Source: Syntrophales bacterium
GTDB taxonomy: Bacteria; Desulfobacterota; Syntrophia; Syntrophales; PHBD01
DNA length: 64,000 nucleotides
Reading direction: 5' to 3'
Assembly: GCA_963668175.1 (NCBI GenBank)
Contig: OY764159.1
Location: 3,104,001 to 3,168,000 of the forward strand
The notes beneath the pieces were generated by a model that saw nothing but the letters and a program-made list of their open reading frames with translations, was not told the DNA's origin and ran no database searches. The position numbers and the translations under genes are program-made. Below, in pieces: positions 7,030 through 53,746 of the stretch (the stretch's first letter is position 1; the number at the start of each line of letters is the position of its first letter).

Positions 7030-7093
7030 TCCGTGCGGCCCGGCAACGCCATGCCGTTAAACGGCATTCCGGCGGGTCGGCCCGCCGCAGGGG

Positions 7094-7858
7094 GTGAAGA
7101 CCATGTATCTATGGCACAAAGAGGGATCGGGTATTCGTCGTGAAGTGACCGCGGCGGCAGCGCTCTCCGTCCTGGCCCATCTCGGGGCGGCCGTCCTGCT
7201 TTACGCCGCCGGGCCCCTATCCGGTTTATCCCTGATCGACAGCGACCCCAGGGTCATTCATGTGACCTGGGTGCATCCAGCCGATACGCCCATCCGCGAA
7301 GCCTCCCCTGTCCGGATCACGGAAAGACGCAGCGATCCACAGACGGCCCGCCTCCATCATCCCCCGAAGATACGGAAGATACAGGAACCGCAGCCCCAAT
7401 CCCCGGTCCGCCAAGAGACGGCGGAGGAGCCGCCTCGGCGTGCCGACACGGGGGTTACGGCCCACTTTACCGCGCCGGCTCCGCCGGCCGGGATACCGGG
7501 GCAGGCGAACAAGCAGGTTGCGGCGCTGTCGCACGGACCGAAGACGGACGGATCGTCCACCCCGGACCAAGCGGCCGTCGCCGCGAAACCGCGCTACGGC
7601 GAAAACGCCCGTCCGTACTATCCGTTGAGCGCCCGCTTGAGGGGGCACGAGGGCGTGGTCGTCATCTCGGCGGAAGTTCTCGCCGAGGGACGGGTGGGCG
7701 CCATGAAGATCAAGGCAAGCTCGGGTCATGACAGCCTCGATCAATCGGCGCTGGAGGCCGTGAAGCAATGGAAATTTGAACCTGGCAAGAGAATGGGGCG
7801 CCCTGTCGCCATGTGGGTGGACATACCCGTCCGATACGTCCTTGCCGGCAGGGATTAA
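7094..7858 (+). CDS. tonB: Energy transducer TonB
   Basis: N-terminal TM with SVLAH, Pro-rich linker, C-terminal YPLSARLRGHEG...SSGHDSLDQSALEAVKQWKFEP. Start is GTG 7094 or ATG 7103. Confidence 0.9.
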   Translation: MKTMYLWHKEGSGIRREVTAAAALSVLAHLGAAVLLYAAGPLSGLSLIDSDPRVIHVTWVHPADTPIREASPVRITERRSDPQTARLHHPPKIRKIQEPQPQSPVRQETAEEPPRRADTGVTAHFTAPAPPAGIPGQANKQVAALSHGPKTDGSSTPDQAAVAAKPRYGENARPYYPLSARLRGHEGVVVISAEVLAEGRVGAMKIKASSGHDSLDQSALEAVKQWKFEPGKRMGRPVAMWVDIPVRYVLAGRD

Positions 7859-7967
7859 CCTTCCGGCGATATATCTGCGGAACATCGGACCGCTTTCAAT
7901 CCCCGCTCTGCGAACCCGCCGGGAAGGATGCACCGGCCCCTGCCGCAGATCATGTGATACCCCCTTA

Positions 7968-8067
7968 CCCTCCTGATATGCTCAATCCTTGAAATACCTA
8001 CCCTTGAATGTGTCCAAGGCCCAAACCTTGATATGCCTAAACTTTAATATGCCTAAACCTTGATATG
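7968..8067. repeat. Short tandem array of ~16-bp units at the dinB 3' end
   Basis: aaaccttgatatgcct (8023-8038), aaactttaatatgcct (8039-8054), aaaccttgatatg (8055-8067), plus decayed copies at 7968-8015. Confidence 0.75.
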
Positions 8068-9360: not shown

Positions 9361-9365
9361 GGCTC

Positions 9366-9395
9366 CTTTTATAGTACGATCGTACTACATGTCAA
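9366..9395 (-). promoter_or_regulatory. dinB promoter with a perfect 16-bp palindromic operator (candidate SOS box)
   Basis: Minus strand reads TTGACA-tgTAGTACGATCGTAC-TATAAA-aggagcc-ATG; palindrome TAGTACGATCGTACTA at 9372-9387. Confidence 0.7.
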
Positions 9396-9795
9396 GGGCC
9401 ATTTTCCTGTTCCCGCCGGACTGCATAAGACGGGATCAACGCCAGTCGCTTACGAAACGAAGCAACCACCGGCAATATTGAGATTCGATCAGGACATGCA
9501 AGTCTGTCTCGACAGCGAGGGTGACGACGATCATCCGTCGATACTGCTTCCTGTTAATAAAAACGGTTTAACCACTGACGTACAACCTTTCAAGCGGTAT
9601 TCCTTAATAACGCCAGCTCGTCTGTTGCCAATTCAGTCCATTTCAAGCCCCACCCTGATATTCTTGGTAATATTCTTAATAGTTGAAATACGCACTCATT
9701 ATGAGTAAGACTTATACACATTATAACTGACAAAGAGTCTCCACCTTGTTCGTCATGAAGGAACTTGATTCTATTGGTTGGGAGGATCATTATTT

Positions 9796-10467
9796 ATGTT
9801 CCAAGACAAACTGCTGAAACGGGCATTAGAGGCATATAATGGGAAACATGTGCTTAACATGGTACTTACGCAAGGCGAAAAGGCGTTAAAGCTCGGCGGC
9901 GAAATCAAGGATATGACCGTTTATTTCCAAGATATTGCCGGCTTCACCGAAATTTCCCAAGGCCTGTCTCCAGAGGATCTTGTCCATCTCATAATTGAGT
10001 ATCTCACCGTTATGACAAACACTGTCGAAAGTCATGAAGGCATCATTGATAAATACATGGGAGTCGCAATCATGGCCTTTTTCGGCGCCAATGATGAAAA
10101 GGATCATGCCGATAAAGCATGTGATTGTGCTTTAGCGGCTATTGAGCAAGCGAATTTATTGTCAAAACGCTGGAGTCAGAAGGGAATTCCTGATCTTAGA
10201 ATCACCGTAGGTGTTAATAGCGGAAAAGTAATTCTAGGTAACTTCGGCACATCTTTCAGATTTCAGTACACAATTCTCGGAGACCATGTGAACTTTGCTT
10301 CACGACTTGAAAAGGCGAATTTACATTACGGAACCGCTGCTTTGATTTCGGAATACACGACAGAAAAACTTTCTGATCAAACGCGCCTGAAGGAAGTAGA
10401 TTTGATTCGCGTAAAAGGGAAAACAGATCCCGTGAAGCTCTTTACTTTTAATAACATAAATCCATAG
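9796..10467 (+). CDS. Stand-alone class III adenylate/guanylate cyclase domain protein, AT-rich, second metal-binding Asp replaced by Val
   Basis: LGGE...TVYFQDIAGFT, DKYMGVAIMAFFG, YTILGDHVNFASRLE, IRVKGK; RBS GGGAGG. Confidence 0.88.
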   Translation: MFQDKLLKRALEAYNGKHVLNMVLTQGEKALKLGGEIKDMTVYFQDIAGFTEISQGLSPEDLVHLIIEYLTVMTNTVESHEGIIDKYMGVAIMAFFGANDEKDHADKACDCALAAIEQANLLSKRWSQKGIPDLRITVGVNSGKVILGNFGTSFRFQYTILGDHVNFASRLEKANLHYGTAALISEYTTEKLSDQTRLKEVDLIRVKGKTDPVKLFTFNNINP

Positions 10468-10665
10468 AATCGGCACAGCATTGCAAAGCTACGCTCCGGT
10501 CTCTATATCCCTTACTCTATTTCAAGTGGTAATCTTCATCTCTTACGCAATGGCAAAACTGATGACTCGTAGGCGAAACCTTCAAACCTCAAGTCCATTT
10601 GCCAGTATCTGTAAAATCAAGTATATATCGGACAGATTATTATCACTCATCCGGCTGGTGAAACG

Positions 10666-11304
10666 ATGTGCGGGCGATATGTCTTGGTTTCCGATTTATC
10701 CGTGATTGCGGAGGAGTTCGAGGTCGATATGGCCGCGGCGGCGCGCTGCGCTTATACGCCCTCCTGGGGCGTCTTCCCCGGCCAGGACGCGACCGCCGTC
10801 GTCCGGCGGGACGGCCGCAACGAACTCGTCTCGCTCCACTGGGGCCTCATCCCCGGTTGGGCCAGGGACCCGGCCATCGGCGGCAGGATGTTCAACGCCC
10901 GGGCGGAGACCGTGGAGACGAAGCCGAGCTTCCGCAGCGCCTTCAGGAAACGCCGGTGCCTGATCGCGGCCGACGGCTTCTACGAGTGGAAAACGGAAGG
11001 CCGGAAGAAGGTCCCGGCCTATTTCCACCTGAGATCGGGGCGGCCCTTCGGCTTTGCCGGCCTCTACGAGACCTGGCGGGGGCCGGATCAGACTGAAATC
11101 CATTCCTGTACGATCATAACGACGGAACCCAACGCCCTGATCCGGCCCATCCACGACCGGATGCCCGCGATCGTCCCCGGGGACCGGCAGCACGTATGGC
11201 TCGACGGCAGGATCGAAGACCCGAAAACACTGCTCCCGATCCTTGCGCCCTACCCTGCCGAAGCCATGGACTTCAAGTGGGGGCTGGGGCCTGCTTTCGC
11301 ATAA
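10666..11304 (+). CDS. SOS response-associated peptidase (SRAP/YedK/HMCES family)
   Basis: N-terminal MCGRY (catalytic Cys2), WGLIP, FNARAET, RRCLIAADGFYEW, IHDRMP. Confidence 0.95.
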   Translation: MCGRYVLVSDLSVIAEEFEVDMAAAARCAYTPSWGVFPGQDATAVVRRDGRNELVSLHWGLIPGWARDPAIGGRMFNARAETVETKPSFRSAFRKRRCLIAADGFYEWKTEGRKKVPAYFHLRSGRPFGFAGLYETWRGPDQTEIHSCTIITTEPNALIRPIHDRMPAIVPGDRQHVWLDGRIEDPKTLLPILAPYPAEAMDFKWGLGPAFA

Positions 11305-11424
11305 AGACCGCAGCGGCGTATTTCTCCTCGACAAACGAAGGACACGGCATTAAAATCCTATAGAATCTGCCCTCCGGGGCCGTTCTGTTTGCAAGCACAA
11401 GACCATCTCAAGGAGCCGTTTGCC

Positions 11425-12423
11425 GTGCCCGTTGTCGTCATCTTCATGACCCGTTCCCGGCTGGAGAATGCCGGCGTCGTCCTGCCGCCGGACTGGCAGG
11501 TCCGCTATCTGACGGCCGCAGGGGAAGCGGAGATCGTAGACGCCTTCCGGGATGCCGACTGCATCCTTTCCCTGGGCTCCGAGGGGGAAATCGGCGGCGG
11601 TCTCATGGACGTCTGCCGGAACCTGAAATTCATCCAGTGTTTCGGCTCCGGCTTCAACCAGGTGGACGCGGCGGCGGCCGAACGAAGGGGAATCGCCGTC
11701 GCCAATGCGCCCGGTCGGAATGCCGGGACGGTTGCCGAATTCACGATCGGCTGCATCATCGCCCTCCAGAGGCGCCTCGTCGAATCCGACGCCGCGGTCA
11801 AGGCGGGCCGCTACGCCGACTTCCGGCCGCAGGTCCTCAAGACGGGCCTGCAGGAGATCGGCGGCAGCCGGATCGGCCTTGTCGGTTTCGGTTACATCGG
11901 CCGGGAGGTGGCAAGGATAGCCTCCGTCCTCGGGGCGTCCGTTGTGTACCATACGAAGCGGCGTCAGCCTGCCGCCGTCGAGAAGGAATACAAGGTATCC
12001 CACCGGCACCTCGACGATCTCCTTGCCGAGAGCGACATCGTCAGCCTCCACGTACCCCTCAACGAGTCGACCCGGGGGATGATCGGCGCCCGGGAACTGG
12101 CCTTGATGAAGGCAGGAAGCCTTCTTGTGAACACGGCCCGCGGCCTCGTCGTCGATCAGACGGCTCTCGCGGCGGCCCTGGAATCCGGCCACCTCGGCGG
12201 GGCGGCCGTCGATACCTTCGACCCGGAGCCGCCCCCGGCGGACCATCCGCTGCTCTCGCTTTCCGCCGAGGCACAGCGCCGCCTTATCCTTTCAGCGCAT
12301 ACCGCCGGGCTCACCGTTCCGTCCTTCCGGCGTCTCCTCGACGCCTGCATCGACAACATCAAACGCGTGCTCGCCGGCGAGCCGCCGTTGAACCAGGTCA
12401 ACCGGACCGCGAACCGGCTCTGA
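11425..12423 (+). CDS. D-isomer-specific 2-hydroxyacid dehydrogenase family protein
   Basis: GLVGFGYIG Rossmann motif, VSLHVP, VNTARG, DTFDPEP, SAHTAG. GTG start chosen after RBS AAGGAG. Confidence 0.88.
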   Translation: MPVVVIFMTRSRLENAGVVLPPDWQVRYLTAAGEAEIVDAFRDADCILSLGSEGEIGGGLMDVCRNLKFIQCFGSGFNQVDAAAAERRGIAVANAPGRNAGTVAEFTIGCIIALQRRLVESDAAVKAGRYADFRPQVLKTGLQEIGGSRIGLVGFGYIGREVARIASVLGASVVYHTKRRQPAAVEKEYKVSHRHLDDLLAESDIVSLHVPLNESTRGMIGARELALMKAGSLLVNTARGLVVDQTALAAALESGHLGGAAVDTFDPEPPPADHPLLSLSAEAQRRLILSAHTAGLTVPSFRRLLDACIDNIKRVLAGEPPLNQVNRTANRL

Positions 12424-35947: not shown

Positions 35948-36736
35948 ATGCGCCTTAACGTTACGATAGCGGCGGTTCTCTTGCTGCTCGCCGGCTGCGC
36001 GCCGGCCCCCTACGTCTTTCCGGATCGGGCCCTCGTCGACAGGGACGTCGTCGCGGATGCCGTCGCCACCCAGAAGCAGATAGACGCCCAGGGCGAAAAG
36101 GACCCGCCGCAGGGCGCGTCCTGGTTTGCGGTGATCGAGGGGCCCTCCCCCGTTATCGTCACGGCCCCCCATGCGGCGATGACGTTCCGCGAGAGGACGG
36201 CCCGTTTCTCCGACGGCGGCGGCACGGCGGCGCTGGCGAAGGCCCTGAACAGGGTCGCCGGGGCGACCGTCCTTTACACCACCTATGCCGGCCCGTCCGA
36301 CCCGGACTATTACGACGACAACGAATTCAAGCGCACCCTGGACAAGCTCATCGACGAACGCAAGCCAGTGCTGGTGCTCGATATCCACGGGAGCCACGCC
36401 TACTGCCCCTACGACGTGGACATGGGCACGATGTTCGGCAAGTCCCTCATGGGGAACGAAGCCGCCGCCGCGCGGCTGGCGGAAACGCTGAAGAAAGAGG
36501 GCATCCTGAACATCTCTTATAACTTCTCAAGCGCGGGCGACCGCGACACGATCGCCAAATTCGCCTCGCAGCGGAACGTCCCCGCCATCCAGTTAGAAAT
36601 CAACCGCACGTGGCTGACGCCCGCGCAGAGCGACCTTGCCGCCCACCGCTTCGCCCAGCTTCTCCAGGCTCTGGCGCGCTACATCGAGGCCGAAAAGTCC
36701 GAAGCCCCCGCCATGCTGCTTGAAGAAGCACGCTGA
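35948..36736 (+). CDS. Lipoprotein, N-formylglutamate amidohydrolase-like Zn hydrolase
   Basis: LAG-C lipobox; TAPH, LDIHG, DVDMGT, IQLEIN. Confidence 0.78.
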   Translation: MRLNVTIAAVLLLLAGCAPAPYVFPDRALVDRDVVADAVATQKQIDAQGEKDPPQGASWFAVIEGPSPVIVTAPHAAMTFRERTARFSDGGGTAALAKALNRVAGATVLYTTYAGPSDPDYYDDNEFKRTLDKLIDERKPVLVLDIHGSHAYCPYDVDMGTMFGKSLMGNEAAAARLAETLKKEGILNISYNFSSAGDRDTIAKFASQRNVPAIQLEINRTWLTPAQSDLAAHRFAQLLQALARYIEAEKSEAPAMLLEEAR

Positions 36737-36976
36737 TACTTACGGCCCTGCCCTGTTCTGCTTCGCCCCGCCCTGCTTCACCGCCCGGCCGGATGCAGCG
36801 GACAGATCGCACCCCCGCCCCCACCACGCAGCAACGCCACGATCTCCCCCGTGCTCAGGCTATATTCTTAATATATTGTGGATATAAAATCCGAATCGTG
36901 CTAGGAAGCTGCTATACGAAAAATACGTAAACCCGTTCCATCCCGCAACCCCAAGCCGGAGGGAAATATGGACCAA

Positions 36977-37021
36977 CTGAAAACCCCGATTCTGTGAAGA
37001 AGGCGGGGTTTTCAGCGTTTA
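36977..37021 (+). terminator. Perfect 12-bp inverted repeat at the left edge of the AT-rich island
   Basis: ctgaaaaccccg(36977-36988)/cggggttttcag(37004-37015). Confidence 0.55.
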
Positions 37022-37147
37022 TCAAATTAATAAGATTTAACAAATCGAATATATATCCACCAATTTACCTATAAATGCTGTGGAATATTAATGTAGTAAC
37101 TTACTTAAATCTTTGTTATTAGAAATGATTTAGCGGAATATTTTTCA

Positions 37148-40100
37148 ATGAAAAAGATACCCTCCAAAATGCCCAAAAGACCGCAAGCACATAGAATTGG
37201 TGACCGTGCAGTTAAAGAATTTAAACAAAAAAGTTCTGACTTCTGGGCTATTACAGAATCTGAAAACGATTACGGATGGGACTTAATCATTACAATTAGT
37301 GAATCTGAAGAAGTTAAAGACGATTTCTTCGTTCAAGTCAAAGGCTCTAATTCACCAGACTATATTAATAATCAGAAGTATATCAGCGTGAATCTCAACG
37401 GGAGTACGGTAAACTGGCTGTTGTCTAAGCCTATGCCAACAATGCTATGCATATGTGACACTTCTAAAAAGGGTAAACCAGTCTTTTATACTTGGATTCA
37501 AGAAGATATAAAGAGGATTGCCAAAAATAACCCAAAATGGGAAGAACAGGAGAATTTGGTATTTCATATACTTGTCTCCGAAGAATTATGCGAAGAAAAC
37601 TATAGTCAAATTGAAACTTATGTAAAAGAGTTTTATGAAAACTTAAAAATATCAGCTGCAATTGGAGATATATTACGACCGAGTTTCGGTTACAAAGGCA
37701 ACACTGCCCTTTCAGCCTACACGCAAGAAACAGAACAACATCTTCTTGAAAATATTCCTACTTCTATGAAGGAAACCGGTATCTTTGATGTTTCCGCAAA
37801 CAAGGTACATGGAAGTCGGTTACATGTCCTGTCAGCTCTTGATCAAAAGCTCTTCAAGGAAATCAAAAAATCATCAGAAGCTTTAAAGGAAATGAGATCG
37901 GATAAGGCTAGAGAAATCATCTCGGAGATTGAGGAAGAAATTAAATTAGCCTCACATGTTATCCAAGCACGATTTCATAACAACCTAGGAGTATTGTATT
38001 TACAATCTAGGTCTGAAGAAATGGCTTTGAGAGCATTTCGAAAGGCCAACAAGTTATGTCCCAATGATTTAAAATATCAAACAAATATTTTGATGACAGA
38101 ATACATTCTTCTGACAAAAAGTTCAGATAAAACAAAAGAAGTTTTAATTGGAAGTAATTGGCATAAAAAACTAAATAAAATATTTTCCAAAGATCGTGAA
38201 TTCGCAGGCATTGTTCGTCTGAAGGCAATATCAATTGGCAAAGAAATAAATGCTCAAGCAGCTGAAGACTATATCAGGGCCCAGAAAGTATGGAAAGAAG
38301 AACCAATCGCCGCGCGGTGTGAATTGGCAGATCTTTACAAGGACGAAGGTGATTGGGATAATGCGATAAGGGTACTCAAAGAAGTTGAACAACAAGCGAT
38401 GGGACTTGATGGCTTATACTGGAACTTATACGGAATCTGTATGCTACAAAAAGCATTAGGAGGCATCGGATGGCACGCGTTGAAAGGTATTCACGGGACA
38501 GGACCGAGTCAATTAAATATCAATGACTTAAAGAAATCCGAACAATGCTTGATTAAATCATGCAAGGAATTTGAACAAGTCGGTTTTCCACCACTATCAA
38601 GTATACCAATTATCAATCTCGTAGCCGTTCAGCGTATATTGGGCCACGCACATGACGCTGAGCAATATTGCAGGTCCTTTTTGAGGAAATACCCGAATCA
38701 CGCGGGCGTGGCTGGCGCTATAGCCACATGCGCGATAATGAAAGATGATTTTTCTACAGCTACAACATATTCAAAAATAGCTTATGAGGCGCAGCAAGAT
38801 GATTCATTAGCTTACCGAAACTACATGCTCTGTCTATTCTTATCAGATGACGCAGATGCGCTCATAGAATTGATACTCAAACGGCAAAAGATAGGCTTTT
38901 CAGATTCTAAGGAAAAATCAATATCATTATCTCTTTATGCAACTGCACTCAATGAAATCGGCCGCATTGATGATGCAAAAAAACAAATTAACATCATGAA
39001 GACAAACCCAGAAATGCTCGATGATGCATTCGTGGCTGAAGCGGCTATAGCGCGTAGCAATGGGATGTCAAGAAAAGAAATCAAGCAAATATTTATAGAA
39101 GCTTTAAATTCTAATCCGAAAAGCTCAATTCTTTTAACACATTATTTCGATTGCCTTGCCCCGTCGGAACCCGATGACTCCGGAGAACTCATTAATATTA
39201 TTTCACTCTTAGCAAATAATCGACAACTGTCGCCGTTAGAAGCTTATACTCTCGGCATTTGTTATATGACACTCAATAACGCAGAAAAAGCACTTGAAAT
39301 CTTCGGAAAAGGCAGCGAGAGGTTTCCGGAAGAGAGTAGATTCTTATATGGACAGGCAAGGGCTTTATCACTGCTCGGTAATGATGAGGAAGCTTATTCT
39401 GTTTTGAAGAAATATTTCGATTTAGGGAAAAAGGATTATGCTGTTATAAAAAATTTAGCCATAATGGCGATGGAGACGGGAAGACTTAATGAAGCAATCA
39501 ATTTATTTCAAAAAGCAATTTTAAAATCTCAGAATGCCGATGAACGCGGCGATCTTCATAATCAGTTGTGGGAACTTAAAAGAAGGCGAGGTGATCCGTC
39601 GAAAGAAGTAATACGTCATATTATTGAATATGGCAAAACAACCGGTAATAACCCTGAAAAAGAAGCTCGCTTTCTTATAATGGCTCTTCTATCACCATAT
39701 GGTGAAACGGATGAAGAAGAAAAAGATTGGAATAATGAAATTAGAAGGAGAATTAAGAATTTTTCACAAAATCATCCACGGTTTCCTGTGTTCACTACTT
39801 TTGATATTCCATCAAATCTTTCAAGTGAAGAGTTGGGAAATTACATAATGGCTCAAATCGCCGCAGTGATGCTTCCCAGACAACTTGCTACTGCGCCTTT
39901 GGAGATTGCAACTCGTTCAGTTCCATTTCCTCTGGTTTTCAGAGCTCATTTATTACCTTCTTATGGATCAACATTTAGTTATTGGTCTCATTGCATTTCA
40001 TCAAAAGAATTTTCATCGGCAATACATATCTTTGGTGATTTTAACTCATTAGCGCGAGAAATAGATTATTCATCGAAAACATCCACTATATGTATTGATT

Positions 40101-41254
40101 TGACGGCGCTTCTAACTCTTGCAGAACTAAATCTTCTGAGTCTATTAAAAAATAGATTTTCATTAGTAGTGATCACACGTGGCACGAAAAGATCTATCGA
40201 ACATCAATTATTTCGAGCAGAACCTCCACATCCACTGGCTGTTAAAATCGAAAGATGGAGGCAAGAAAATCGGTCGATCATTCGGATAAGAAATATTCCA
40301 GAAAGCGAAGGACTCGATAAAAATGATCCTGAAACTTACAGAGATTATGTAAGGGATCGAAGTGGCATTTTCCTGAGAAAAGAACCCCCCGTTAATATTT
40401 TAATTGGAGATGGTGTAGGCGAGAGCCTCCTGCTTGCGAATCAGTTAAACATACCTCTTTATTCAGACGAATCCTATATCAGGAATTTGGGCTATGATAA
40501 TTATAGAGTCAAATGTCTATCGACTATCTCGCTCATAAGAAAATTGAGAAATGAAAAGATAATCTCAATACATGATGAAACGATAATCTTCTGTGAAATG
40601 ATAAGGAAAAATTTCAGAGTTGTTCCTTTTGATAAGGATCATTTAAATTCCTCTCTTGAATTTTTATTAACGAAAATGACGAAGGAAAAGAAATTATTAC
40701 CTGGAAAACAAGCGCTATTGGACGATGAGAACCTTGGACTTCTATTGAAACAATTCGGTGATCCATTTTTTAATGAAGCATGGCTAGTGAAGATAGCAGT
40801 ATCCTGGTGGTTATCTATGATAGAAGAAAATACTATCAATGATAATATTCTGACATACTGTATCGAGTATCCAAGTTATGCTTTGTCGATGAGGCATACA
40901 GGATATGCTATTATGAAAGGTTTCAAGAAGAATGAGCAAGAAAATAGACTCGCCCATATTTTTGCGTATTTCTTAGTCCAGACATGCGAACTCGTACAGC
41001 CTCCTATTCGCAAGGTATGGTCATATATAAAAACTTGTTGCGAACAAATATTTTCTTCCAATCAAAAAAAATACACGACAACGCTTTTCGAAATATTGCC
41101 ACGATGGATTTCTTCTGAATTAAACAATAACAGAACTATTAATAACGATGTTAAGTTGTTTAGATTCTTTTTAATTTCAAGTTCCTTTCCTGAAGGAGAT
41201 AGATCACAATTCGATGAAATAGTTAAGAAATATCCCCCCGCATTTATGTCATAA
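37148..41254 (+). CDS. DUF4365-like PD-(D/E)xK nuclease + TPR repeats + C-terminal PIN-like domain; candidate defence protein
   Basis: ENDYGWDL...FFVQVKG; TPR helices (FHNNLGVLY, AYTLGICY, LYGQARAL, IKNLAIMA); ICIDLTALLTL...GESLLLA...LYSDE. AT-rich: one hand-counted line is 35% GC versus 72% for one line of the flanking gene. Confidence 0.8.
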   Translation: MKKIPSKMPKRPQAHRIGDRAVKEFKQKSSDFWAITESENDYGWDLIITISESEEVKDDFFVQVKGSNSPDYINNQKYISVNLNGSTVNWLLSKPMPTMLCICDTSKKGKPVFYTWIQEDIKRIAKNNPKWEEQENLVFHILVSEELCEENYSQIETYVKEFYENLKISAAIGDILRPSFGYKGNTALSAYTQETEQHLLENIPTSMKETGIFDVSANKVHGSRLHVLSALDQKLFKEIKKSSEALKEMRSDKAREIISEIEEEIKLASHVIQARFHNNLGVLYLQSRSEEMALRAFRKANKLCPNDLKYQTNILMTEYILLTKSSDKTKEVLIGSNWHKKLNKIFSKDREFAGIVRLKAISIGKEINAQAAEDYIRAQKVWKEEPIAARCELADLYKDEGDWDNAIRVLKEVEQQAMGLDGLYWNLYGICMLQKALGGIGWHALKGIHGTGPSQLNINDLKKSEQCLIKSCKEFEQVGFPPLSSIPIINLVAVQRILGHAHDAEQYCRSFLRKYPNHAGVAGAIATCAIMKDDFSTATTYSKIAYEAQQDDSLAYRNYMLCLFLSDDADALIELILKRQKIGFSDSKEKSISLSLYATALNEIGRIDDAKKQINIMKTNPEMLDDAFVAEAAIARSNGMSRKEIKQIFIEALNSNPKSSILLTHYFDCLAPSEPDDSGELINIISLLANNRQLSPLEAYTLGICYMTLNNAEKALEIFGKGSERFPEESRFLYGQARALSLLGNDEEAYSVLKKYFDLGKKDYAVIKNLAIMAMETGRLNEAINLFQKAILKSQNADERGDLHNQLWELKRRRGDPSKEVIRHIIEYGKTTGNNPEKEARFLIMALLSPYGETDEEEKDWNNEIRRRIKNFSQNHPRFPVFTTFDIPSNLSSEELGNYIMAQIAAVMLPRQLATAPLEIATRSVPFPLVFRAHLLPSYGSTFSYWSHCISSKEFSSAIHIFGDFNSLAREIDYSSKTSTICIDLTALLTLAELNLLSLLKNRFSLVVITRGTKRSIEHQLFRAEPPHPLAVKIERWRQENRSIIRIRNIPESEGLDKNDPETYRDYVRDRSGIFLRKEPPVNILIGDGVGESLLLANQLNIPLYSDESYIRNLGYDNYRVKCLSTISLIRKLRNEKIISIHDETIIFCEMIRKNFRVVPFDKDHLNSSLEFLLTKMTKEKKLLPGKQALLDDENLGLLLKQFGDPFFNEAWLVKIAVSWWLSMIEENTINDNILTYCIEYPSYALSMRHTGYAIMKGFKKNEQENRLAHIFAYFLVQTCELVQPPIRKVWSYIKTCCEQIFSSNQKKYTTTLFEILPRWISSELNNNRTINNDVKLFRFFLISSSFPEGDRSQFDEIVKKYPPAFMS

Positions 41255-41401
41255 TAATAGGCATTATTTATGTTCTATCTTCTCTTTCCGGATTAATATG
41301 TCATTCGTATAAATAGCACCCAGAAACAATCAACCTTCTTGCCTAGAACGCTATCGTAAATAATTTTTCCGGCATGATTTACCTTGTGGCTTTTCCTACC
41401 G

Positions 41402-42625
41402 CTACACTTCCGGCAGCCCTTTCACCGCCGTAAAGAATTTTCTGAACGGCTGGTAGATGTCTTTCGCGAGGGTTTGGCGGGCGGGGTCCCGGCTTTGCCG
41501 CCAGGCCGCAAGCGCTTCTCCGGCGGTGCTCGCGGCTTTCGCAGATTCAACATACGTCGCCGCCGCAACGGCGGGCCTGTCGTTTCCGTCCAGCAGTTTT
41601 TCAAACCTGCCGCTTATATCGTCGAAGTAATCCTTTAAATCCTTTCCTTCGATCTTTTCGGGCGGCCGGTCCGTCCGGTCGACCTCGACGCTTTTGATCT
41701 CGCCCGGCGCTGCGCTTGCAAAGGCCGCCAGCACCGGGATGACGGCGTCGAGCACGCCCGGCAAGAGCCCTGCGGACTCCAGGCTGACGGCGATCCTGTC
41801 CGGGCTTTTCTGGACGATGTACCGGTCCCCCAAGGTTTGGGACAGAGCCCGCTCGACGGGGAAGAGGTGCCCCCAGCGTCCGTTGGCGAACACGACGGCG
41901 ATCTGCTCGCGCCGCTTGCTTTTCAGGTCGGCCAGATAGGCGACGACCGCTCTCCCGTTCGCCTTGACAAGCTCCGGGGGAACGTTGACCAGGGGGTTGC
42001 CGTACATTTCGATGGTGACGATGTCCGTGAGGTTGCCGATTTCCAGCGGAAGCTCCGCAAGTCGGTTCTTGGGGAGGCGGAGCCTGTTGAGATTCGTGAG
42101 CCTGCCGAACTCCGGCGGCAGCGCCTCGATCCGGTTCGTGCCGAGGTCGAGCTCGATGAGCTTCGTGAGATTCCCGATCTCCGGCGGAACGGTTTCGATC
42201 CGGTTATAGCCGAGGTGAAGCCCCGTGAGGTTTGCGAGGTTGCCGATCTCCGTCGGGATCGCCTCGATATGGTTGTTGTTGAGGTAAAGCGCCGTCAGCT
42301 TTTCGAGGCCGCCGATCTCGGGCGGGATCGTCCCGATCCGGTTGTTGCCCAGATCCAGCACGGCAAGATTTTTGAGGCCGCCCAACTCCTTCGGAATCGC
42401 CTCGATATGGTTCCCGCCCAGGTACAGGTCGGTCAGGTTCTTAAGATTCGCGATTTCCGGAGGGATCGCCGTAATCGTGTTCCAGCCGAGCTTGAGGGTC
42501 GTCAGCTGCGTGAGCGCGCACAGCTCCGCCGGGAATTCCGTCAACTGCTGGCCGTAAAGGGATATGGCCGTCGCCCCTTCGCTGCGGGCCTTGTCGATTA
42601 GTTCGAGAAGATCTTTTTTCTCCAC
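41402..42625 (-). CDS. Leucine-rich repeat protein with unrecognised C-terminal domain
   Basis: Eight 23-residue repeats of the IxxIPPEIGxLxxLxxLxLxxNx type plus a GNPLxxxPPE cap; GTG start. Confidence 0.9.
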   Translation of the reverse strand: MEKKDLLELIDKARSEGATAISLYGQQLTEFPAELCALTQLTTLKLGWNTITAIPPEIANLKNLTDLYLGGNHIEAIPKELGGLKNLAVLDLGNNRIGTIPPEIGGLEKLTALYLNNNHIEAIPTEIGNLANLTGLHLGYNRIETVPPEIGNLTKLIELDLGTNRIEALPPEFGRLTNLNRLRLPKNRLAELPLEIGNLTDIVTIEMYGNPLVNVPPELVKANGRAVVAYLADLKSKRREQIAVVFANGRWGHLFPVERALSQTLGDRYIVQKSPDRIAVSLESAGLLPGVLDAVIPVLAAFASAAPGEIKSVEVDRTDRPPEKIEGKDLKDYFDDISGRFEKLLDGNDRPAVAAATYVESAKAASTAGEALAAWRQSRDPARQTLAKDIYQPFRKFFTAVKGLPEV

Positions 42626-45793: not shown

Positions 45794-45926
45794 CGTCGAC
45801 CGCATTTGACGCATCATGCCGATGAGGCCGCAGTGTGCATATACACTTACGGCCTCATCGTGTTCATTTTTTCACTTCGCTGCCGCCATTTGCGCTGTCA
45901 ACCCATTTCGGCGCGCCACCCGGCAC

Positions 45927-45955
45927 TTGACACAAATCCAACTGGCTGTTAAGAT
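45927..45955 (+). promoter_or_regulatory. Sigma70-type promoter
   Basis: TTGACA-17 bp-TAAGAT upstream of the ankyrin gene. Confidence 0.6.
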
Positions 45956-45992
45956 TACTCTATCCAATGTTCATGTATCCTGTGAGGTGACG

Positions 45993-48287
45993 ATGAGACG
46001 AGGGTTGTTGTATGCGGCCATGATTCCTATCCTTTTCTGGTGCATTCTTGCGGCTGCTGCTGGTGCGACGGACCGTCTGCCGCCGCCTGATTTTCCGCTC
46101 ATGGAGGCGGTCAAAAAGGGCGACGCCAAGAACGTCCGGAGCCTCCTTGAAAGCGCATCTTTTAATAAGGCCGATATAGACAGGAAGGGTATAAGCGGCG
46201 AAACGGCCCTCACCGTCGCCGCCGGGGACGGCAACCTTGAAATCGTTCAGCTTCTCGTGGAACACGGCGCCGCGGTCGATGCGGGGAAAGACGGAGCAAG
46301 AACGCCGCTGATCGAGGCTTCCGGCCAGGGATACGTCAAGATCGTCCAATACCTCATCGAAAAAGGCGCCGACGTCAACGCGAGGGGCGGCGGCATTACG
46401 GCTCTCCTTGCGGCGAGCCGCAACGACGTCTTCCCTTTCAAACCCAAAGGCAACAGGAAGCGGACGATGGCGGCTCTCCTTTCGGCCGGCGCGGATGTCA
46501 ACGTACAGGACGAATCGTGGATGAAGACAGGCCGGACGCCCCTCATGTTCGCCGTAACGCAGGGGGATGCCGCCGCGGTGCAGAGCTTCCTCGCCAAAGG
46601 TGCGAAACTCGATGTAAAAGACAGCAACGGTGACACGGCCATGGCCATCGCCAAGGAGGCCCGGCTTGAATATATCGTATCGCTTCTCGAAAAGGCGGAG
46701 AAGGGACCTATTGAAGCGCCGCCCGCCGGCCCCGAACTGCCGCCTATCTTCGATGCCGTCAGGGAAAACAGTCTGAGCAAAGTGAAAGCCCTCCTCAAGG
46801 GCGGAGAGGATGTCGACCGGCGGACCCCCAGCGGCAGCACGCCGCTGATGTTTGCGGCGGACGGCGGCAATGCGGAAATCGCCCGGTATCTCATAAAAGA
46901 AGGCGCCGACGTCAATGCCGGAAACGGCATGAACAACACGGCGCTCATCTTCGCGGCGACCAAGGGCCATGCCAACATTGCGGCCGATCTCCTGCGGAAG
47001 AAGGCGGACGTCAACGCCCGGAACCTAAGCCGCGGCGACGCCCTGATCTATGCCGTGATCCATAACAAGGCCGACGTCGTCCGCATCCTTTTGAAGAGCG
47101 GCGCCGATATCGACCGCACCTATGACGACGGCAAGACGGCCCTCATCGCGGCCGTGGCCGAAGGCAACGAGGGTATCGCCCGCCAACTCATCGCCCGCGG
47201 GGCGGAAATCGATGCGGCCGACAGGAACGGCGTCACCGCCCTGATGGTCGCCTCCATCAAAGGCCAAGCGGAAATGGTCGATGCGTTCATTAAGGCCGGG
47301 GCGGATGTCCATATCAAGGACAAAAACGGGGAGACGGCCCTGGACAAGGCCGTGGCGGCCAACAGGCTCCCGATCGTCAAGAGACTGGCAGACGCGGCCG
47401 GACGCACCGGCCGGGAGCAGGCCCTCTTCGCCGCCGCCGGCAACGGCAACATGGAGATCGTCAAGCTTCTTCTGACCCGAGGCGTGGACGTGAACTCCGC
47501 AGGGCCCGGCGGGGAAACGCTCCTGATGCGGGCGGCCGCGGCGGACGACGACATGGTGAAGTATCTCGTCGGAAAGCACGCGGATGTCAACAGCCGCGAC
47601 TACGAAGGGAACACCGCCCTCATCAAAGCGGCAGGTTCTTTCTACAGCACCGCCGGCGTGACGGTCAGGTATCTCCTGGAGAACAGCGCCGATCCCAACG
47701 CGGCAAACAAGGACGGCGAGACGGCCCTGATCCTGGCGGCGAAAAGGGGCCGCATGGTTATGGCGGAAATGCTTCTCGACAAGAACGCTGCCGTCTTCCC
47801 GAAAGACAAGGCGGGCAAGACGGCCCTTGTCTATGCCATGGAAGGGGGCTATAACGACATCGCGGCTCGCCTGACCAAAGCAGGCGCAGCCAGAGATTAT
47901 AAGGGGATGAAATGGTCCGCTTTCGTCTCGAAGCAGAAGGAGCCGTTTATCAAGGTCGTGGACAATGCACAGGAATGGCATGCCCTCTGGAGCCGCGCCC
48001 TCGAAAAAACCGCGCCGGACATCGATTTCGACAAGTACGTTGTGGCCTGTGTCTTCCTGGGTTACTACGCAAAGTGGCTTTACGCCATCAACATCGGCGA
48101 ACCCGTCATGGAGGACGGCCGGATGGTCGTGCCCTACGGCCTTTTAGATATTGAATTGCGGCTTTCCGGCCCCTTCGAGGCCTCCGGGCAGTACGCCATG
48201 AAGGTCCTGGAGAAAAAACCGGGCGTATCGTACGTCGTGGAAGAGCGGCCTGCGCGGACTCGGCGGCACCCTCCGGCGCTCCGTTGA
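45993..48287 (+). CDS. Exported ankyrin repeat protein with PrcB_C-like C-terminal domain
   Basis: Signal peptide; about 17-18 GxT(A/P)L...GADVN repeats; tail EWHALW...APDIDFDKYVVACVFLG; RBS GAGGTG. Confidence 0.88.
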   Translation: MRRGLLYAAMIPILFWCILAAAAGATDRLPPPDFPLMEAVKKGDAKNVRSLLESASFNKADIDRKGISGETALTVAAGDGNLEIVQLLVEHGAAVDAGKDGARTPLIEASGQGYVKIVQYLIEKGADVNARGGGITALLAASRNDVFPFKPKGNRKRTMAALLSAGADVNVQDESWMKTGRTPLMFAVTQGDAAAVQSFLAKGAKLDVKDSNGDTAMAIAKEARLEYIVSLLEKAEKGPIEAPPAGPELPPIFDAVRENSLSKVKALLKGGEDVDRRTPSGSTPLMFAADGGNAEIARYLIKEGADVNAGNGMNNTALIFAATKGHANIAADLLRKKADVNARNLSRGDALIYAVIHNKADVVRILLKSGADIDRTYDDGKTALIAAVAEGNEGIARQLIARGAEIDAADRNGVTALMVASIKGQAEMVDAFIKAGADVHIKDKNGETALDKAVAANRLPIVKRLADAAGRTGREQALFAAAGNGNMEIVKLLLTRGVDVNSAGPGGETLLMRAAAADDDMVKYLVGKHADVNSRDYEGNTALIKAAGSFYSTAGVTVRYLLENSADPNAANKDGETALILAAKRGRMVMAEMLLDKNAAVFPKDKAGKTALVYAMEGGYNDIAARLTKAGAARDYKGMKWSAFVSKQKEPFIKVVDNAQEWHALWSRALEKTAPDIDFDKYVVACVFLGYYAKWLYAINIGEPVMEDGRMVVPYGLLDIELRLSGPFEASGQYAMKVLEKKPGVSYVVEERPARTRRHPPALR

Positions 48288-49053: not shown

Positions 49054-50010
49054 TCAACCATAAGCAGGCGATTGCTGCTGTTTCTCAAGGTTACCAATGG
49101 CAGCCCTGATCATGGGATACAGCGTGAGATCCATTCTATGACGGTCGTGAAGCGTTCTCAATCGAACGAGAGCTTCCGGGAAGGACCGTTGAAGTGTGAT
49201 ACAGTAGCCCACTCCGATTTCTAACTGGTCTTCATGGTTGCTGTACAATTGGCACAGGCAGTGCCAGTCGTCGATCGCCATGTTAATTATTTCATGGTAA
49301 CGATTCTGTTGATCCGCAAGCCCCCTATCAATCGCTCCAACGATGTCCTCGGCGGTCGTTGTGCCGGATAACTCTATGATAGGAGGTAAATCCCTAAAGT
49401 TCATACGCCGCAACAACGACACGAGGTGGCCCCTTGCTTCCGGCGCCAGCATCAAATACTCCTCCGCAACCGCCCTGGAATAGTATGCGATATAGGATGT
49501 GTATTTCGTTTCGAATAGTTCTTCCACTTTTGCTTCCGTGAACTCCGGCACTTTATAGTTTTTTATATTATCTAAACTTGAGGCGATCTCATTCGTTACG
49601 GTTTGTTTCAGAGTCTGGAAATGGTTTTCAAGAGAATCTTTACCCGAATTTATCGATTCCGTTACCTTATCATCCATGATGGAGAAACGATTCTCTATGT
49701 TTCTGATAGTTTCAATTTCTCTTGTTATAAATTCTCTTTGATTCTTTGCCGCGCTGTTGCCTGTAATGGCAATACCGATACTAAATGCACTAACAATAAA
49801 TGTCATGAAGAAACCGTAGACCGTTATCGTATTGTCGAGACGCTTAATAGCGAGTTCAAAGAACTTTTCATTGGTCAGATTAGCCTTTTCGTTGGCTGTC
49901 CTGGCAGGCGGGTCGATCAATCCACGGTCAGCGCATGAGGAACTGATGCAATACAATAAGGACAGGAAACATATAAAACCAGTTAAAAAACATATATATC
50001 TCGGCATCAT
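49054..50010 (-). CDS. Hypothetical membrane-anchored coiled-coil protein
   Basis: N-terminal hydrophobic segment, second TM (VYGFFMTFIVSAFSIGIAI), then helical/coiled-coil region; overlaps the receiver gene stop. Confidence 0.72.
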   Translation of the reverse strand: MMPRYICFLTGFICFLSLLYCISSSCADRGLIDPPARTANEKANLTNEKFFELAIKRLDNTITVYGFFMTFIVSAFSIGIAITGNSAAKNQREFITREIETIRNIENRFSIMDDKVTESINSGKDSLENHFQTLKQTVTNEIASSLDNIKNYKVPEFTEAKVEELFETKYTSYIAYYSRAVAEEYLMLAPEARGHLVSLLRRMNFRDLPPIIELSGTTTAEDIVGAIDRGLADQQNRYHEIINMAIDDWHCLCQLYSNHEDQLEIGVGYCITLQRSFPEALVRLRTLHDRHRMDLTLYPMIRAAIGNLEKQQQSPAYG

Positions 50011-50569: not shown

Positions 50570-53500
50570 TCATGAATCCCATGGATTTTCTTCTCTCTCC
50601 AACCATGCAGGGTATTCTAACAAAAAGGAAAAGATGGACCATCGGGGGTCCTTCGTCTTCCTATAGTCGAGACACAAATCGCCGCCGAAGGAACGGGCTC
50701 TCTTCCGGGCAATGAACAGCCCAAGCCCTTCGCCCTTATCATCTTGGCCTTGGAGATTGGAGTGGCATCGCGCTCCGGCGTCAAATACTTTCTCAGGCGC
50801 GGTTGTCGCTTCTTCATTCAGAGCAACGCCCGTGTTTGTGATCGTTATCTCGCGATGCGCCGCGCTGGAATGCGCCGTGATCTCAAGTGCCGTTCCCCTT
50901 TTTGCGTATTTTACAATGTTATCAACTAAATTTTTGAATATTTCCCTCAACGTCAAATCGGGAAGCCAGATGTCGGCGGGATAGATATCCAATTCAAGAA
51001 TCCTGATTCCCGCCTCTTTCAGGTCTTCCTCCCTCGACTTCAGAGCGGACGTCAAAACGGAGCGGATATCAATGCGTTTTCGCATGGGGCCATGAAGAGA
51101 AAAGGTGAACATATAGGCCAATAGGGGATGCTCATCATCCATTATATTGAGTTCTTCAATTTTATTTGAAGTGATGAATCGAAGCAACGCGTTTCCCAAC
51201 TTGATGTTACTTGAAATGTCAATCAAGTTTTTTCGTAACTCAGGGGTTAGATGCTGTTTTATTCTCTTTTGGAGAAGTTCGACATTCTGCTGGATGCCTA
51301 GGAACGCCAGATCCACATCGTGTGCGATTACGCGGCGTATCGTGGCCATCTTCCTGTTCAGGGCGTTGTAATGCATGACGATCTCGGTGATCTCCTGCCC
51401 CAGGTACACGACAGCATCCTGAAATTCCTTGGAGTATTCAATCCCTTTCATGCGATCGTGAATCACGAGCAGGCCGAACGGTCTTTGCTCCATATCCACC
51501 ATTTTGACCTGGATGCAGGATCTGTAGCCTGCCGCTGAAAGACCATGCAAGGCCGTGCCGGTAAGGGAGGACACGTCTGAAATGATCCATAATGGGTTGC
51601 TTCTTTTCAGTATCTCGGTGAAGAAGCGATCGCTGCCGGAAACCTCCATGTCATACTGTAACAAATTGTCCTGTATGTTGATGCTCTTTCCTATTAAGAC
51701 CAACTCACGCTCCTCGGACAAGCGCCACAAGGATACGCCGCCGGCGCCGAAGAGAACGGCTGTCTCCTCCGCGATTTCTTCGTAAAATGCCCGATCACGG
51801 CCTGTTTTGATTGCCTCTCCGAGGATTTCATTGAGCCTTTTATGGGCGGCCGTCAGCTTGGACTCGAAGAGTTCGGGCGCATAGGTGTCCACGAAGTTGA
51901 TGACACTCAGCCTGTCCAGGATGGAGAACTGGCACGGTTTTTCGGTCGATAGACATAAGACACCGTGTTTCCGTCCCTGATAGATGATAGGGGAGATCAA
52001 ATAGTCGCCATCCTTTTTAAACCAATGGGACCAGTCCCGAAGATTTATGAAAGTTTGGTCGATAAGATGGGCAAGGGGTTTGAATGTTTCATCGCATATA
52101 TAACGGGAGATGAACGTCTCATCATCCAGACACTGGTATAAGGGATTATTGATCCTCTGAGATTCATTTCCTCCTTCTGTTTTCATAAACGATGCAACAT
52201 CCAGCCATATAGCGTCATTTCTGGCCGGTTTCATCCCCCTGGGAAACACGTTCGATATATCCATCACGGCGGGGATGAGAATGTTAGCGGGGCCGTCGTA
52301 TTTGAAGTACGTCACGCGATCTGCCAGAGTGAGTTGCAGCGACGCAACTGCCAGTTCTTCATACCGCCGCTGGGCGTCTTCGATTGGAACGCCTTGAAGT
52401 TTATGGTGGATCTGCTGGGAGTAGGTCCGCTTGAAGTGGGACCTGTTCATCATTCCCTTTTCCCTGTGCAGCTTGTGAAAGCTCTCCAGTTCCTTCCTGG
52501 CATCATTCCATAACTTTTCATACTTCTCTCTATTATCTTCCGTAACGTCCTCATCGTCATATTCGATCGTTACGTGATCCAAGTTTTCTTCATGCTTTTC
52601 TTTCTTCGTGATTGCCGTGCGGAACTGATAGAGGTCGTCCTTATGATTGAAGGTCCAAACCGATGACGCAACGTGGTTTAGCCTTGGTTCGGGAGAGAGG
52701 CGTACGCTGATGTGGACGGTATACGGTTTATTCTTTTCATCTTTCTCTTGCTTATCTTTAGAAAACGGTTTTTTCCAATAACTCTTTATTTCTGTTTTCT
52801 TAATGTCGTCATGGAGTGCTTTGATTTTAGCTGAATACTTCCGAAATAACGGGGCCGTATAGTCGCAATGTAAGAACAGGAGCCACTCGACGAGATTTCG
52901 CCATTCGGAAGAGGAAAACGCAGCAATGCTTCTATTATATTGCTTCTCCAAGAGAGTCAGGTCAGTGATGACAGTACTCGCGATTAAGGTTTTTTTCGTG
53001 AGGATATCCTGATTCACCAAGGAATGCATTCGGAGACTGTTGATCAGATGGACTGTATCCTCGTAAGACAATATTTCATTCTTTTTGATTTGCTTGAGAA
53101 TAGCCAGGATATTGCGTTCCATACGAAACGAATGCGAGCCGGCTTCTGTGGGGTCCAAGGACTCTGCGGTCCACACATGCCCCACCACCCAGTATCCGTC
53201 CATGGTGCCGAACCCCTGCCGGATAGGCAATATCATCTCCTTGAGACCGATGGGGTTCAGCAATGCTTGCTGTTCATTTTTATTGTTAATAGGGTTCAGT
53301 AATTCTTGCTGTTCATTTATATTATTAAAGCTTGCTATCGCTCTCAAGTAGTGCAGCGTCATGTAGGATGAAATAGGGGGGTATATTTTCTTGACGGCTT
53401 GGAAGAGCGGGTTCGGAATGCTGAGGGGAGTCTGCCAAATGGCATTGTTCAAGGCATCTTTTGTTATTGGAGTATATCCCTTTTTCTGAAAAGATTTCGG

Positions 53501-53746
53501 CACGTTTTCAGGATAGAACCAGTATAGTAGGTCATCTCCGATGCTCTCTTCCAGGGGTTTCTCAGGATGGCCTCGATCGATCAGCGCTTTGAGTTTTTGA
53601 ATGGGGGCACCTGCTTCTTCCCATATACGCAAAACGGCATCCAGTGCGTCGTAATTGATTAAACGGAATGAGCAGTTCAGAAAGAAAGACAGGGACCGCT
53701 GTGTATGAAGCAGGCGCTTCTTCTCATCCGGGCTCAAGCTCGCCAC
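50570..53746 (-). CDS. Cytoplasmic multi-sensor histidine kinase (PocR-like + 2 GAF-like + HATPase_c)
   Basis: GLKEMILPI...GYWVVGHV; LISPIIYQGRKHGVLCL; PFGLLVIH; IAHD; NLVDNIVKY, ITNTG, GEGLGLFIA; no TM. Confidence 0.8.
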   Translation of the reverse strand: MASLSPDEKKRLLHTQRSLSFFLNCSFRLINYDALDAVLRIWEEAGAPIQKLKALIDRGHPEKPLEESIGDDLLYWFYPENVPKSFQKKGYTPITKDALNNAIWQTPLSIPNPLFQAVKKIYPPISSYMTLHYLRAIASFNNINEQQELLNPINNKNEQQALLNPIGLKEMILPIRQGFGTMDGYWVVGHVWTAESLDPTEAGSHSFRMERNILAILKQIKKNEILSYEDTVHLINSLRMHSLVNQDILTKKTLIASTVITDLTLLEKQYNRSIAAFSSSEWRNLVEWLLFLHCDYTAPLFRKYSAKIKALHDDIKKTEIKSYWKKPFSKDKQEKDEKNKPYTVHISVRLSPEPRLNHVASSVWTFNHKDDLYQFRTAITKKEKHEENLDHVTIEYDDEDVTEDNREKYEKLWNDARKELESFHKLHREKGMMNRSHFKRTYSQQIHHKLQGVPIEDAQRRYEELAVASLQLTLADRVTYFKYDGPANILIPAVMDISNVFPRGMKPARNDAIWLDVASFMKTEGGNESQRINNPLYQCLDDETFISRYICDETFKPLAHLIDQTFINLRDWSHWFKKDGDYLISPIIYQGRKHGVLCLSTEKPCQFSILDRLSVINFVDTYAPELFESKLTAAHKRLNEILGEAIKTGRDRAFYEEIAEETAVLFGAGGVSLWRLSEERELVLIGKSINIQDNLLQYDMEVSGSDRFFTEILKRSNPLWIISDVSSLTGTALHGLSAAGYRSCIQVKMVDMEQRPFGLLVIHDRMKGIEYSKEFQDAVVYLGQEITEIVMHYNALNRKMATIRRVIAHDVDLAFLGIQQNVELLQKRIKQHLTPELRKNLIDISSNIKLGNALLRFITSNKIEELNIMDDEHPLLAYMFTFSLHGPMRKRIDIRSVLTSALKSREEDLKEAGIRILELDIYPADIWLPDLTLREIFKNLVDNIVKYAKRGTALEITAHSSAAHREITITNTGVALNEEATTAPEKVFDAGARCHSNLQGQDDKGEGLGLFIARKRARSFGGDLCLDYRKTKDPRWSIFSFLLEYPAWLEREENPWDS
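53249..53326 (-). repeat. In-frame 39-bp tandem duplication inside the kinase gene
   Basis: Encodes NNINEQQELLNPI / NNKNEQQALLNPI. Confidence 0.85.

Follow-up and report, generated by a model that had tools for sequence, protein, structure and literature searches.

The 64,000-nucleotide (nt) window analysed here, positions 3,104,001–3,168,000 (forward strand) of contig OY764159.1 from the Syntrophales bacterium assembly GCA_963668175.1, contains a gene of deviant composition for which an immune role appears probable, judging from its domains. This ATG-initiated open reading frame (ORF), located at window positions 37148..41254 on the plus strand and taken from the ORF list and its translation, encodes a 1368-amino-acid (aa) protein (P0001) that combines a DUF4365 nuclease, an array of tetratricopeptide repeats (TPR) and a PIN domain. 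The GC content of the gene is 0.37 (0.32 at third codon positions, GC3), compared to ~0.62 in the flanks, and the adjoining genes lie at 0.61–0.67 (GC3 0.67–0.87), bearing out a sequence-only reading of the window which had described the gene as AT-rich relative to its neighbours. It is the one gene of a low-GC islet of ~4.5 kb (about 36850..41390 in the GC profile), at the edges of which the GC content, measured in 100-nt windows, falls from 0.73 to 0.24–0.41 and returns to 0.60 at 41400. Judging from this foreign composition (0.37 versus 0.62), the gene is horizontally acquired, a conclusion also drawn from the low GC content of a homologue in a Nitrospiraceae metagenome-assembled genome (MAG; 0.40 versus 0.53–0.58 in the surrounding DNA). 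The 4.1-kb reading frame is unbroken and is conserved over its full length with relatives.

No tRNA genes were found in the window, no direct repeats flanking the islet, no integrase at the islet and no plausible ORF for a small partner protein in the islet or its flanks. A perfect 12-bp inverted repeat with a 15-nt loop, identified by a repeat search at the left islet edge (36977..37015), is possibly a terminator or a boundary element; the Rfam scan of positions 36000–42000, with E values up to 1, matched no family, the inverted repeat included. Neither the promoter scan (17 promoter-like sites versus a mean of 13.9 in shuffled sequence) nor the terminator scan gave results above those for shuffled sequence.

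The closest described relatives of the 1368-aa protein are the TPR-GreAB-C-PIN (TGP) systems, which were first delineated in a computational study by Kaur, Iyer, Burroughs and Aravind (eLife 2021; PMC8195603). According to that paper, TGP proteins share a constant core of TPR, GreA/B-C and PIN domains behind one of 13 effector domains, including a restriction endonuclease (REase), and are mostly encoded by stand-alone genes; the GreA/B-C domain is proposed to dock on hijacked RNA polymerase, with the PIN domain cutting the transcript. No other mechanism has been proposed for TGP systems. In source-data file 1 of the same study, where most rows give the architecture string twice, TPR+PIN occurs 359 times, X+PIN 118 times, REase+PIN 18 times and REase+TPR+PIN 6 times, the latter corresponding to three rows, namely, NLD36189.1 (1360 aa, from a Desulfatiglans sp. 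MAG), PCJ29538.1 (1292 aa) and WP_179833445.1 (1241 aa). The DUF4365-TPR-PIN architecture has thus already been recorded, and the 1368-aa protein is a new member of a catalogued form which is itself not new, so that its earlier description as possibly an uncharacterised variant was overstated. The REase+TPR+PIN form is not discussed in the available portion of the article text (PMC8195603). NLD36189.1 has the same written architecture, a similar length and, like several relatives of the 1368-aa protein, a delta-proteobacterial origin, its kinship with this family being judged from length, taxon and architecture only.

The domain layout was established with Pfam profiles, alignments and two AlphaFold2 (AF2) models built with family alignments as input, one of residues 781–1368 (mean predicted local confidence, pLDDT, 92.0; predicted template-modelling score, pTM, 0.87) and the other of residues 1–1000 (pLDDT 86.8, pTM 0.66). 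All parts of the protein described below are encoded on the plus strand. The N-terminal part, residues 12–176 (37181..37675), is a predicted DUF4365/DREN-type PD-(D/E)xK nuclease, matched by Pfam at residues 28–155 (E 1.1e-8; score 35.7 bits, cut-off 24.3), with the catalytic stretch D41..D45..Q63-x-K65 identified by alignment (37268..37342). Its modelled secondary structure runs H13-28, E33-37, E46-52, E55-67, E71-73, E78-84, H85-93, E98-104, E112-116, H117-127, E136-142 and H149-176 (H, helix; E, strand). A linker, residues 177–229 (37676..37834), follows; it is modelled with low confidence (pLDDT 50–70), contains a small beta-hairpin (E213-218, E222-227) and is the least conserved segment of the protein (mean pairwise identity 0.32). 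Residues 230–875 (37835..39772) form an unbroken TPR-like solenoid of ~32 successive helices without a beta-rich domain, within which several Pfam TPR families match between residues 274 and 800. In Foldseek searches, the 1–1000 model retrieved the TPR superhelices of Ctr9, Ski3, IFT-A and OGT, with E values down to 6e-13, in agreement with the long TPR middle originally noticed by eye. Near the end of the solenoid, a short acidic loop, residues 851–860 (39698..39727), occupies the site of the GreA/B-C domain of canonical TGP proteins, as located by hhalign, MAFFT and AF2.

The solenoid is followed by a pre-PIN module, residues 876–979 (39773..40084), consisting of a hairpin (878–883), a long helix (893–922) and short helices in the AF2 model, and homologous to the stretch that separates GreA/B-C from PIN in canonical TGP proteins. 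The TGP-type PIN domain, residues 980–1125 (40085..40522), is delineated by Pfam PF20698 (PIN of the TPR-GreAB-C-PIN system; residues 983–1115, E 5.8e-6), alignment and AF2, and displays an alternating beta/alpha pattern with a variable, disordered insert at ~1049–1085. The all-helical C-terminal domain, residues 1126–1368 (40523..41251; pLDDT mostly above 90), matched no Pfam family, and a search of the ESM Atlas with residues 1120–1368 retrieved unnamed clusters only (best score 0.89); its first part is common to canonical TGP proteins. The PIN domain, the C-terminal domain and the last helices of the solenoid constitute one rigid, confidently modelled unit (pTM 0.87), for which Foldseek returned nothing at E up to 1e-3 (781–1368 model). 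Sequence searches of the PDB gave 0 matches for residues 1–270 and chance matches only (E at least 0.17) for the PIN region.

All motifs quoted in the sequence-only reading are present, namely, DYGWD at residue 41, VQVK at 62, IDLTALLTL at 983, GES at 1091 and LYSDE at 1104. Its assertion that the protein lacks a Walker A motif and does not belong to the Avs/STAND group also holds: the pattern [AG]xxxxGK[ST] does not occur in the 1368-aa protein, no nucleoside triphosphatase (NTPase) family was matched in Pfam, NCBIfam or PADLOC, and the NCBIfam scan yielded TPR families only. Accordingly, the protein resembles Avs/STAND proteins in joining an effector nuclease and a repeat sensor in one chain, but differs from them in having no P-loop NTPase module.

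A word-indexed search of 5.8 billion clustered proteins retrieved 19 relatives with 22–49% identity, most of them full-length (1263–1447 aa) and from metagenomes, the named ones originating from Deltaproteobacteria or Desulfobacterales MAGs. The distribution of the family is patchy and rare. Among 1.84 billion representative proteins, a HMMER search with residues 801–1368 found 111 proteins at E<=1e-3, 61 of which scored at E<=1e-30. DUF4365 and PF20698 are each matched by 16 of the 17 aligned family members (best E 5.1e-16 and 1.5e-11, respectively), and, on the evidence of these profiles, the agreement is far beyond chance. The active-site residues were scored in alignments of 50 rows (nuclease, non-gap rows) and 56 rows (PIN). 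In the nuclease, D45 is kept in 46/46 rows, Q63 in 48/48 and K65 in 48/48; in the PIN domain, D984 is kept in 55/56, T1013 in 52/56, E/D1092 in 49/56, D1107 in 55/56 and E/D1108 in all 56. Both assignments made from the letters, a restriction-fold DUF4365 nuclease with a near-invariant D...QxK signature and a PIN domain of the TGP type with its acidic residues, are thereby upheld, and the protein is predicted to carry two intact nuclease centres, one DREN-type and one TGP-type PIN. Conservation is even along the chain, with mean pairwise identities of 0.32–0.45 per segment. One relative, P0004 (1447 aa), has ~80 extra residues ahead of DUF4365, which could be a fused small domain or the product of a mis-called start; the precomputed Pfam list of this protein includes PF03144.

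The GreA/B-C domain is absent from the 1368-aa protein and is replaced by the ~10-residue loop at 851–860, a conclusion on which Pfam, the alignment gap, a block-specific hidden Markov model (HMM), hhalign and AF2 all agree and which upholds the initial impression that no beta domain of this kind is visible. The weak matches to the protein include canonical TGP proteins (P0117, P0120, P0124, P0126 and P0109), all five with a strong PF20698 match (comparison proteins reach E values of 4e-25 on this profile) and a weak PF01272 (GreA_GreB) match ending ~110–120 residues before the PIN domain. By contrast, PF01272 is not among the 25 Pfam families most often matched by the 17 family members; it is weakly matched by 5 of the 12 comparison proteins and by none with DUF4365. 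hhalign aligned seven canonical TGP proteins collinearly with the 17-member family along 929 columns (E 1.2e-51, probability 100%), the sole break being the GreA/B-C block of P0124 (residues 753–826, ~75 residues), which stands opposite a gap at 851–860; a MAFFT alignment of 20 proteins shows the same clean gap. The HMM of the block, built from only five sequences, matched 7 of 232 collected proteins, namely, the five training sequences, P0125 and P0103, and none from the family. Aligned directly with the family by hhalign, the block gave a probability of 1.6%, versus 100% for the positive control. Finally, in both AF2 models helices flank the loop, helices only are found there, and a beta-rich domain is not seen anywhere. 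With GreA/B-C missing, the protein is unlikely to dock in the RNA polymerase secondary channel in the way proposed for canonical TGP proteins.

A larger group of DUF4365 proteins of ~1310–1330 aa, from Pseudomonas, Paraburkholderia and Cupriavidus (sampled members P0020, P0118, P0121, P0122 and P0127–P0232), likewise contains DUF4365, TPR and a PF20698 PIN domain. These proteins match the C-terminal query at 22–29% identity and have the helical module 801–983 in common with the family, but form a separate clade. They are labelled REase+TPR+GreAB-C+PIN by Kaur et al., whose rows with this label include WP_082055264.1 and WP_041475188.1, yet the block was not detected: 0/101 of these ~1320-aa proteins match the block HMM at E <1, hhalign of the block against 12 of the 101 gave a probability of 0.1%, none of nine members sampled earlier (0/9) carries the block, and PF01272 had no match in the members scanned. 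One of them, P0174, shares species, length and name with a row of the published data (Cupriavidus basilensis, 1329 aa, REase+TPR+GreAB-C+PIN), the identity of the accessions being unconfirmed. Going by these profile comparisons, the published GreA/B-C label may be too generous for the ~1320-aa DUF4365 class.

Overall, the 1368-aa protein resembles TGP proteins in its variable N-terminal effector, TPR array, PF20698 PIN domain and helical tail, with which it is collinear at 100% probability, as well as in being encoded by a stand-alone gene, the neighbours of which differ between the window and four related loci. The effector itself, a DUF4365 nuclease, is also in line with the REase listed among the effector classes (PMC8195603). 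What sets it apart from the canonical proteins is the lack of GreA/B-C. The one TGP protein examined by experiment, Agp of Escherichia coli ECOR25, is paired with Bab and protects against phage T5 (bioRxiv 10.1101/2024.11.07.622273); in contrast to Agp, which has an amyloid motif and a Bell-domain partner, the 1368-aa protein has a DUF4365 nuclease as effector and its gene has no adjacent partner gene. DUF4365 is the same domain as the DREN nuclease of SPARDA, an immune effector with the catalytic residues D41, Q60 and K62 (in NbaSPARDA), which shows no activity in monomeric form and becomes active as a D2 tetramer with helix1–helix1 and strand1/2–strand1/2 interfaces (PMC12205087). The D...QxK centre of the 1368-aa protein, with D45, Q63 and K65, corresponds to that of SPARDA. 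Unlike SPARDA, however, the protein has no APAZ domain and no Argonaute partner among the 23 neighbouring ORFs scanned, and assembly would need the TPR-PIN body, rather than a guide-target filament, as its driver. A toxin–antitoxin module of the VapBC type was considered and rejected, given that the PIN domain is embedded in the 1368-aa protein and that no credible small ORF was found in the flanks.

Taken together, our analysis favours, with a probability of roughly 0.55, a stand-alone conflict gene of the TPR-PIN superfamily, in the REase+TPR+PIN form, with an assembly-gated DREN DNase and a PIN RNase. Most likely, it would act as a single-gene abortive-infection sensor, and its target is most likely a phage or a plasmid. 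The sequence-only reading had put forward a sensor that needs no NTPase and has two nuclease outputs, a notion that fits the conservation of both sets of catalytic residues. If SPARDA and repeat-based immune sensors are a guide, the protein would be inert at rest, given that in SPARDA a DREN domain on its own shows no activity. The TPR solenoid would then bind an infection-derived ligand and binding would drive self-association, whereupon the N-terminal DREN domains would form a D2 tetramer and degrade DNA indiscriminately, leading to abortive infection, with the PIN domain cleaving RNA as a first or parallel output. Self-association of residues 1–176 is supported by a model of four copies, which scored an ipSAE of 0.90 (runs 0.89, 0.91 and 0.90; best control 0.00), with at least 88% of contacts in common between the runs and a partner pLDDT of at least 87. 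When the tool was calibrated, 20 of 30 proteins with pair structures reached the mark, as opposed to 1 of 23 with single-chain structures. The modelled contacts are symmetric, involve helix 1 (residues 16–31) and strands 1–2 (34–49) and fall on both interfaces named for the DREN tetramer. In terms of annotation, the gene ranks as an unremarkable candidate defence gene acquired by horizontal transfer; its main value lies in providing a natural form that lacks GreA/B-C, is conserved and keeps all else, and thus serves as a test of the parts responsible for sensing infection. Should the DUF4365 forms prove to defend in the absence of GreA/B-C, sensing in these forms would have to fall to the TPR-PIN body, the published label of the largest effector class would call for correction and the switch of an assembly-gated DREN nuclease would extend beyond Argonaute systems.

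Several observations weigh against an assembly-gated immune protein. The calibration of the modelling tool used two copies, not four, and other alignments, and the four-copy model may itself reflect memory of the solved SPARDA structures. In the 1368-aa protein, the PF20698 score (27.0 bits) is 0.8 bit below the cut-off of 27.8. The folds anticipated from the letters were recovered by profiles (DUF4365 and PF20698) but not by Foldseek, which, with the two multi-domain models as queries, found no PIN or restriction-enzyme structures and only helical repeats, such queries not being informative on nuclease folds; because only TPR superhelices were returned, the evidence for the nuclease folds comes from profiles, secondary structure and catalytic residues. 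The PADLOC check likewise came back empty, with 0 matches to the protein, for which PADLOC has no model. A search for a hypervariable sensor region was negative (mean pairwise identity of 0.36–0.40 in the TPR region versus 0.44–0.45 in the nuclease domains), and, the TPR region being no more variable than the nuclease domains, there is no sign of a fast-evolving sensor surface. Furthermore, 11 ORFs of the window compared with PADLOC included no convincing defence gene save a PycC-like cyclase 27 kb away, and no defence-island context is seen in the window. Clear defence neighbours are present at only one of the four related loci, and our literature search found no experimental paper on a TGP protein of the DUF4365 type.

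Alternatively, the protein might act as proposed for canonical TGP systems, with hijacked RNA polymerase engaged via the TPR array or the pre-PIN module, the PIN domain cutting the transcript and the N-terminal nuclease serving as a back-up suicide effector. The collinearity of the rest of the protein with canonical TGP proteins speaks for this possibility, as do the scheme put forward by Kaur et al. (2021; PMC8195603) and the finding that GreA/B-C mutations abolish defence by Agp (bioRxiv 10.1101/2024.11.07.622273). However, the protein lacks the sole domain for which polymerase binding is known, nothing similar is found in residues 801–980, and we regard this account as unlikely. The division of labour could also be different, such that DREN kills whereas the PIN and C-terminal module is not an RNase but an RNA-binding sensor or an autoinhibitory or assembly module. 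This would be in keeping with the rigid unit formed by the PIN domain, the C-terminal domain and the last solenoid helices (pTM 0.87, as above) and with the behaviour of the Agp PIN D762N mutant, in which protein stability was lost, leaving the catalytic role of the Agp PIN unproven (bioRxiv 10.1101/2024.11.07.622273). Retention of the acidic PIN residues in 49–56 of 56 rows is, nonetheless, hard to explain without catalysis or metal binding, and we consider a single effector rather improbable.

More radically, the gene might have no immune function and encode a selfish or addiction-type nuclease, or a TPR-scaffolded enzyme of nucleic-acid processing that became mobile by chance. Consistent with this are the lack of defence neighbours in the window and at three of the four related loci and the lack of a PADLOC model; nevertheless, the rare and patchy distribution (19 relatives among 5.8 billion clustered proteins), the foreign composition without conserved neighbours, the homology to a validated defence protein family and the fact that DUF4365 is otherwise an immune effector all argue to the contrary, and the chances of a non-immune role appear slim. 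That the gene is an inert remnant of a transfer event, as the strongly deviant composition and the lack of an obvious promoter (17 versus 13.9 sites, see above) might suggest, is highly improbable in view of the unbroken 4.1-kb frame, the intact catalytic residues and the full-length conservation. Returning to the assembly-gated DREN nuclease with a PIN RNase, a broader version of this reading would take the whole DUF4365 branch of the TGP superfamily, including the ~1320-aa group, as an RNA-polymerase-free, ATP-independent single-chain receptor with a ligand-driven DREN tetramer and a PIN RNase. We advance this only tentatively; if true, the branch would have arrived by convergence, and without Argonaute, at an equivalent of the SPARDA filament switch.

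Only four related loci were retrieved from the genome collection with an 8-row alignment. The expectation of defence genes next to homologues holds at one of them and fails at the other three. In a Desulfobacteraceae MAG, the homologue has AbiLi/AbiLii (E 1.6e-74 and 3.6e-31) on one side and, on the other, a large methyltransferase of 735 aa that resembles HmaB or PglX (locus coordinates 19–1745 and 6392–8599), so that, on gene content, this locus is a predicted small defence island. By contrast, no defence neighbours were found at the loci of a Zixibacteria MAG, of the Nitrospiraceae MAG mentioned above and of an unclassified bacterium. Searches with tblastn detected no relative in phage genomes and, in plasmids, matches to N-terminal stretches only, in two records. 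A distant relative, a 1286-aa DUF4365-TPR protein, is encoded on an Enterobacter kobei plasmid (8992–12852) beside a tyrosine recombinase, and Pseudomonas aeruginosa plasmids (~500 kb; 9127–12174) encode a TPR+PIN relative of 1015 aa that has no DUF4365, next to IS66 and a DEAD/DEAH helicase. These plasmid settings, like the Abi genes beside the Desulfobacteraceae homologue, speak for the conflict-gene reading.

Within the window, the genes upstream of the islet encode, according to Pfam, a MatE transporter, an Fe-S protein and an FGase-like protein, and those downstream a leucine-rich-repeat protein, an outer-membrane barrel and an ankyrin protein. Apart from the PycC-like cyclase, the other PADLOC match in the window is a weak one to ZorA/MotA (E 2.5e-4). 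The cyclase is itself the product of a second low-GC single gene, 9778–10467 (+), which encodes 229 aa and has a GC content of 0.42 versus ~0.65 in its flanks. The protein is a predicted class III nucleotidyl cyclase (PADLOC PycC, the Pycsar cyclase, E 4.2e-30; Guanylate_cyc, E 8.8e-23), and its gene is located between genes for a DinB-like polymerase and a SRAP protein, with no adjacent effector gene. Leucine-rich and ankyrin repeats are usually regarded as eukaryotic, and the presence of both in this bacterial genome of ~62% GC is for this reason worthy of note: the 407-aa leucine-rich-repeat protein is encoded just downstream of the 1368-aa gene (41402–42625, minus strand) and the 823-aa ankyrin-repeat protein at 45816–48287 on the plus strand (Ank_2, E 1.3e-100). 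Further downstream are two minus-strand genes, one at 49054–50010 with a GC content of 0.44 and no Pfam family and the other at 50570–53746 with a GC content of 0.48, encoding a 1058-aa protein with GAF and HATPase_c domains.

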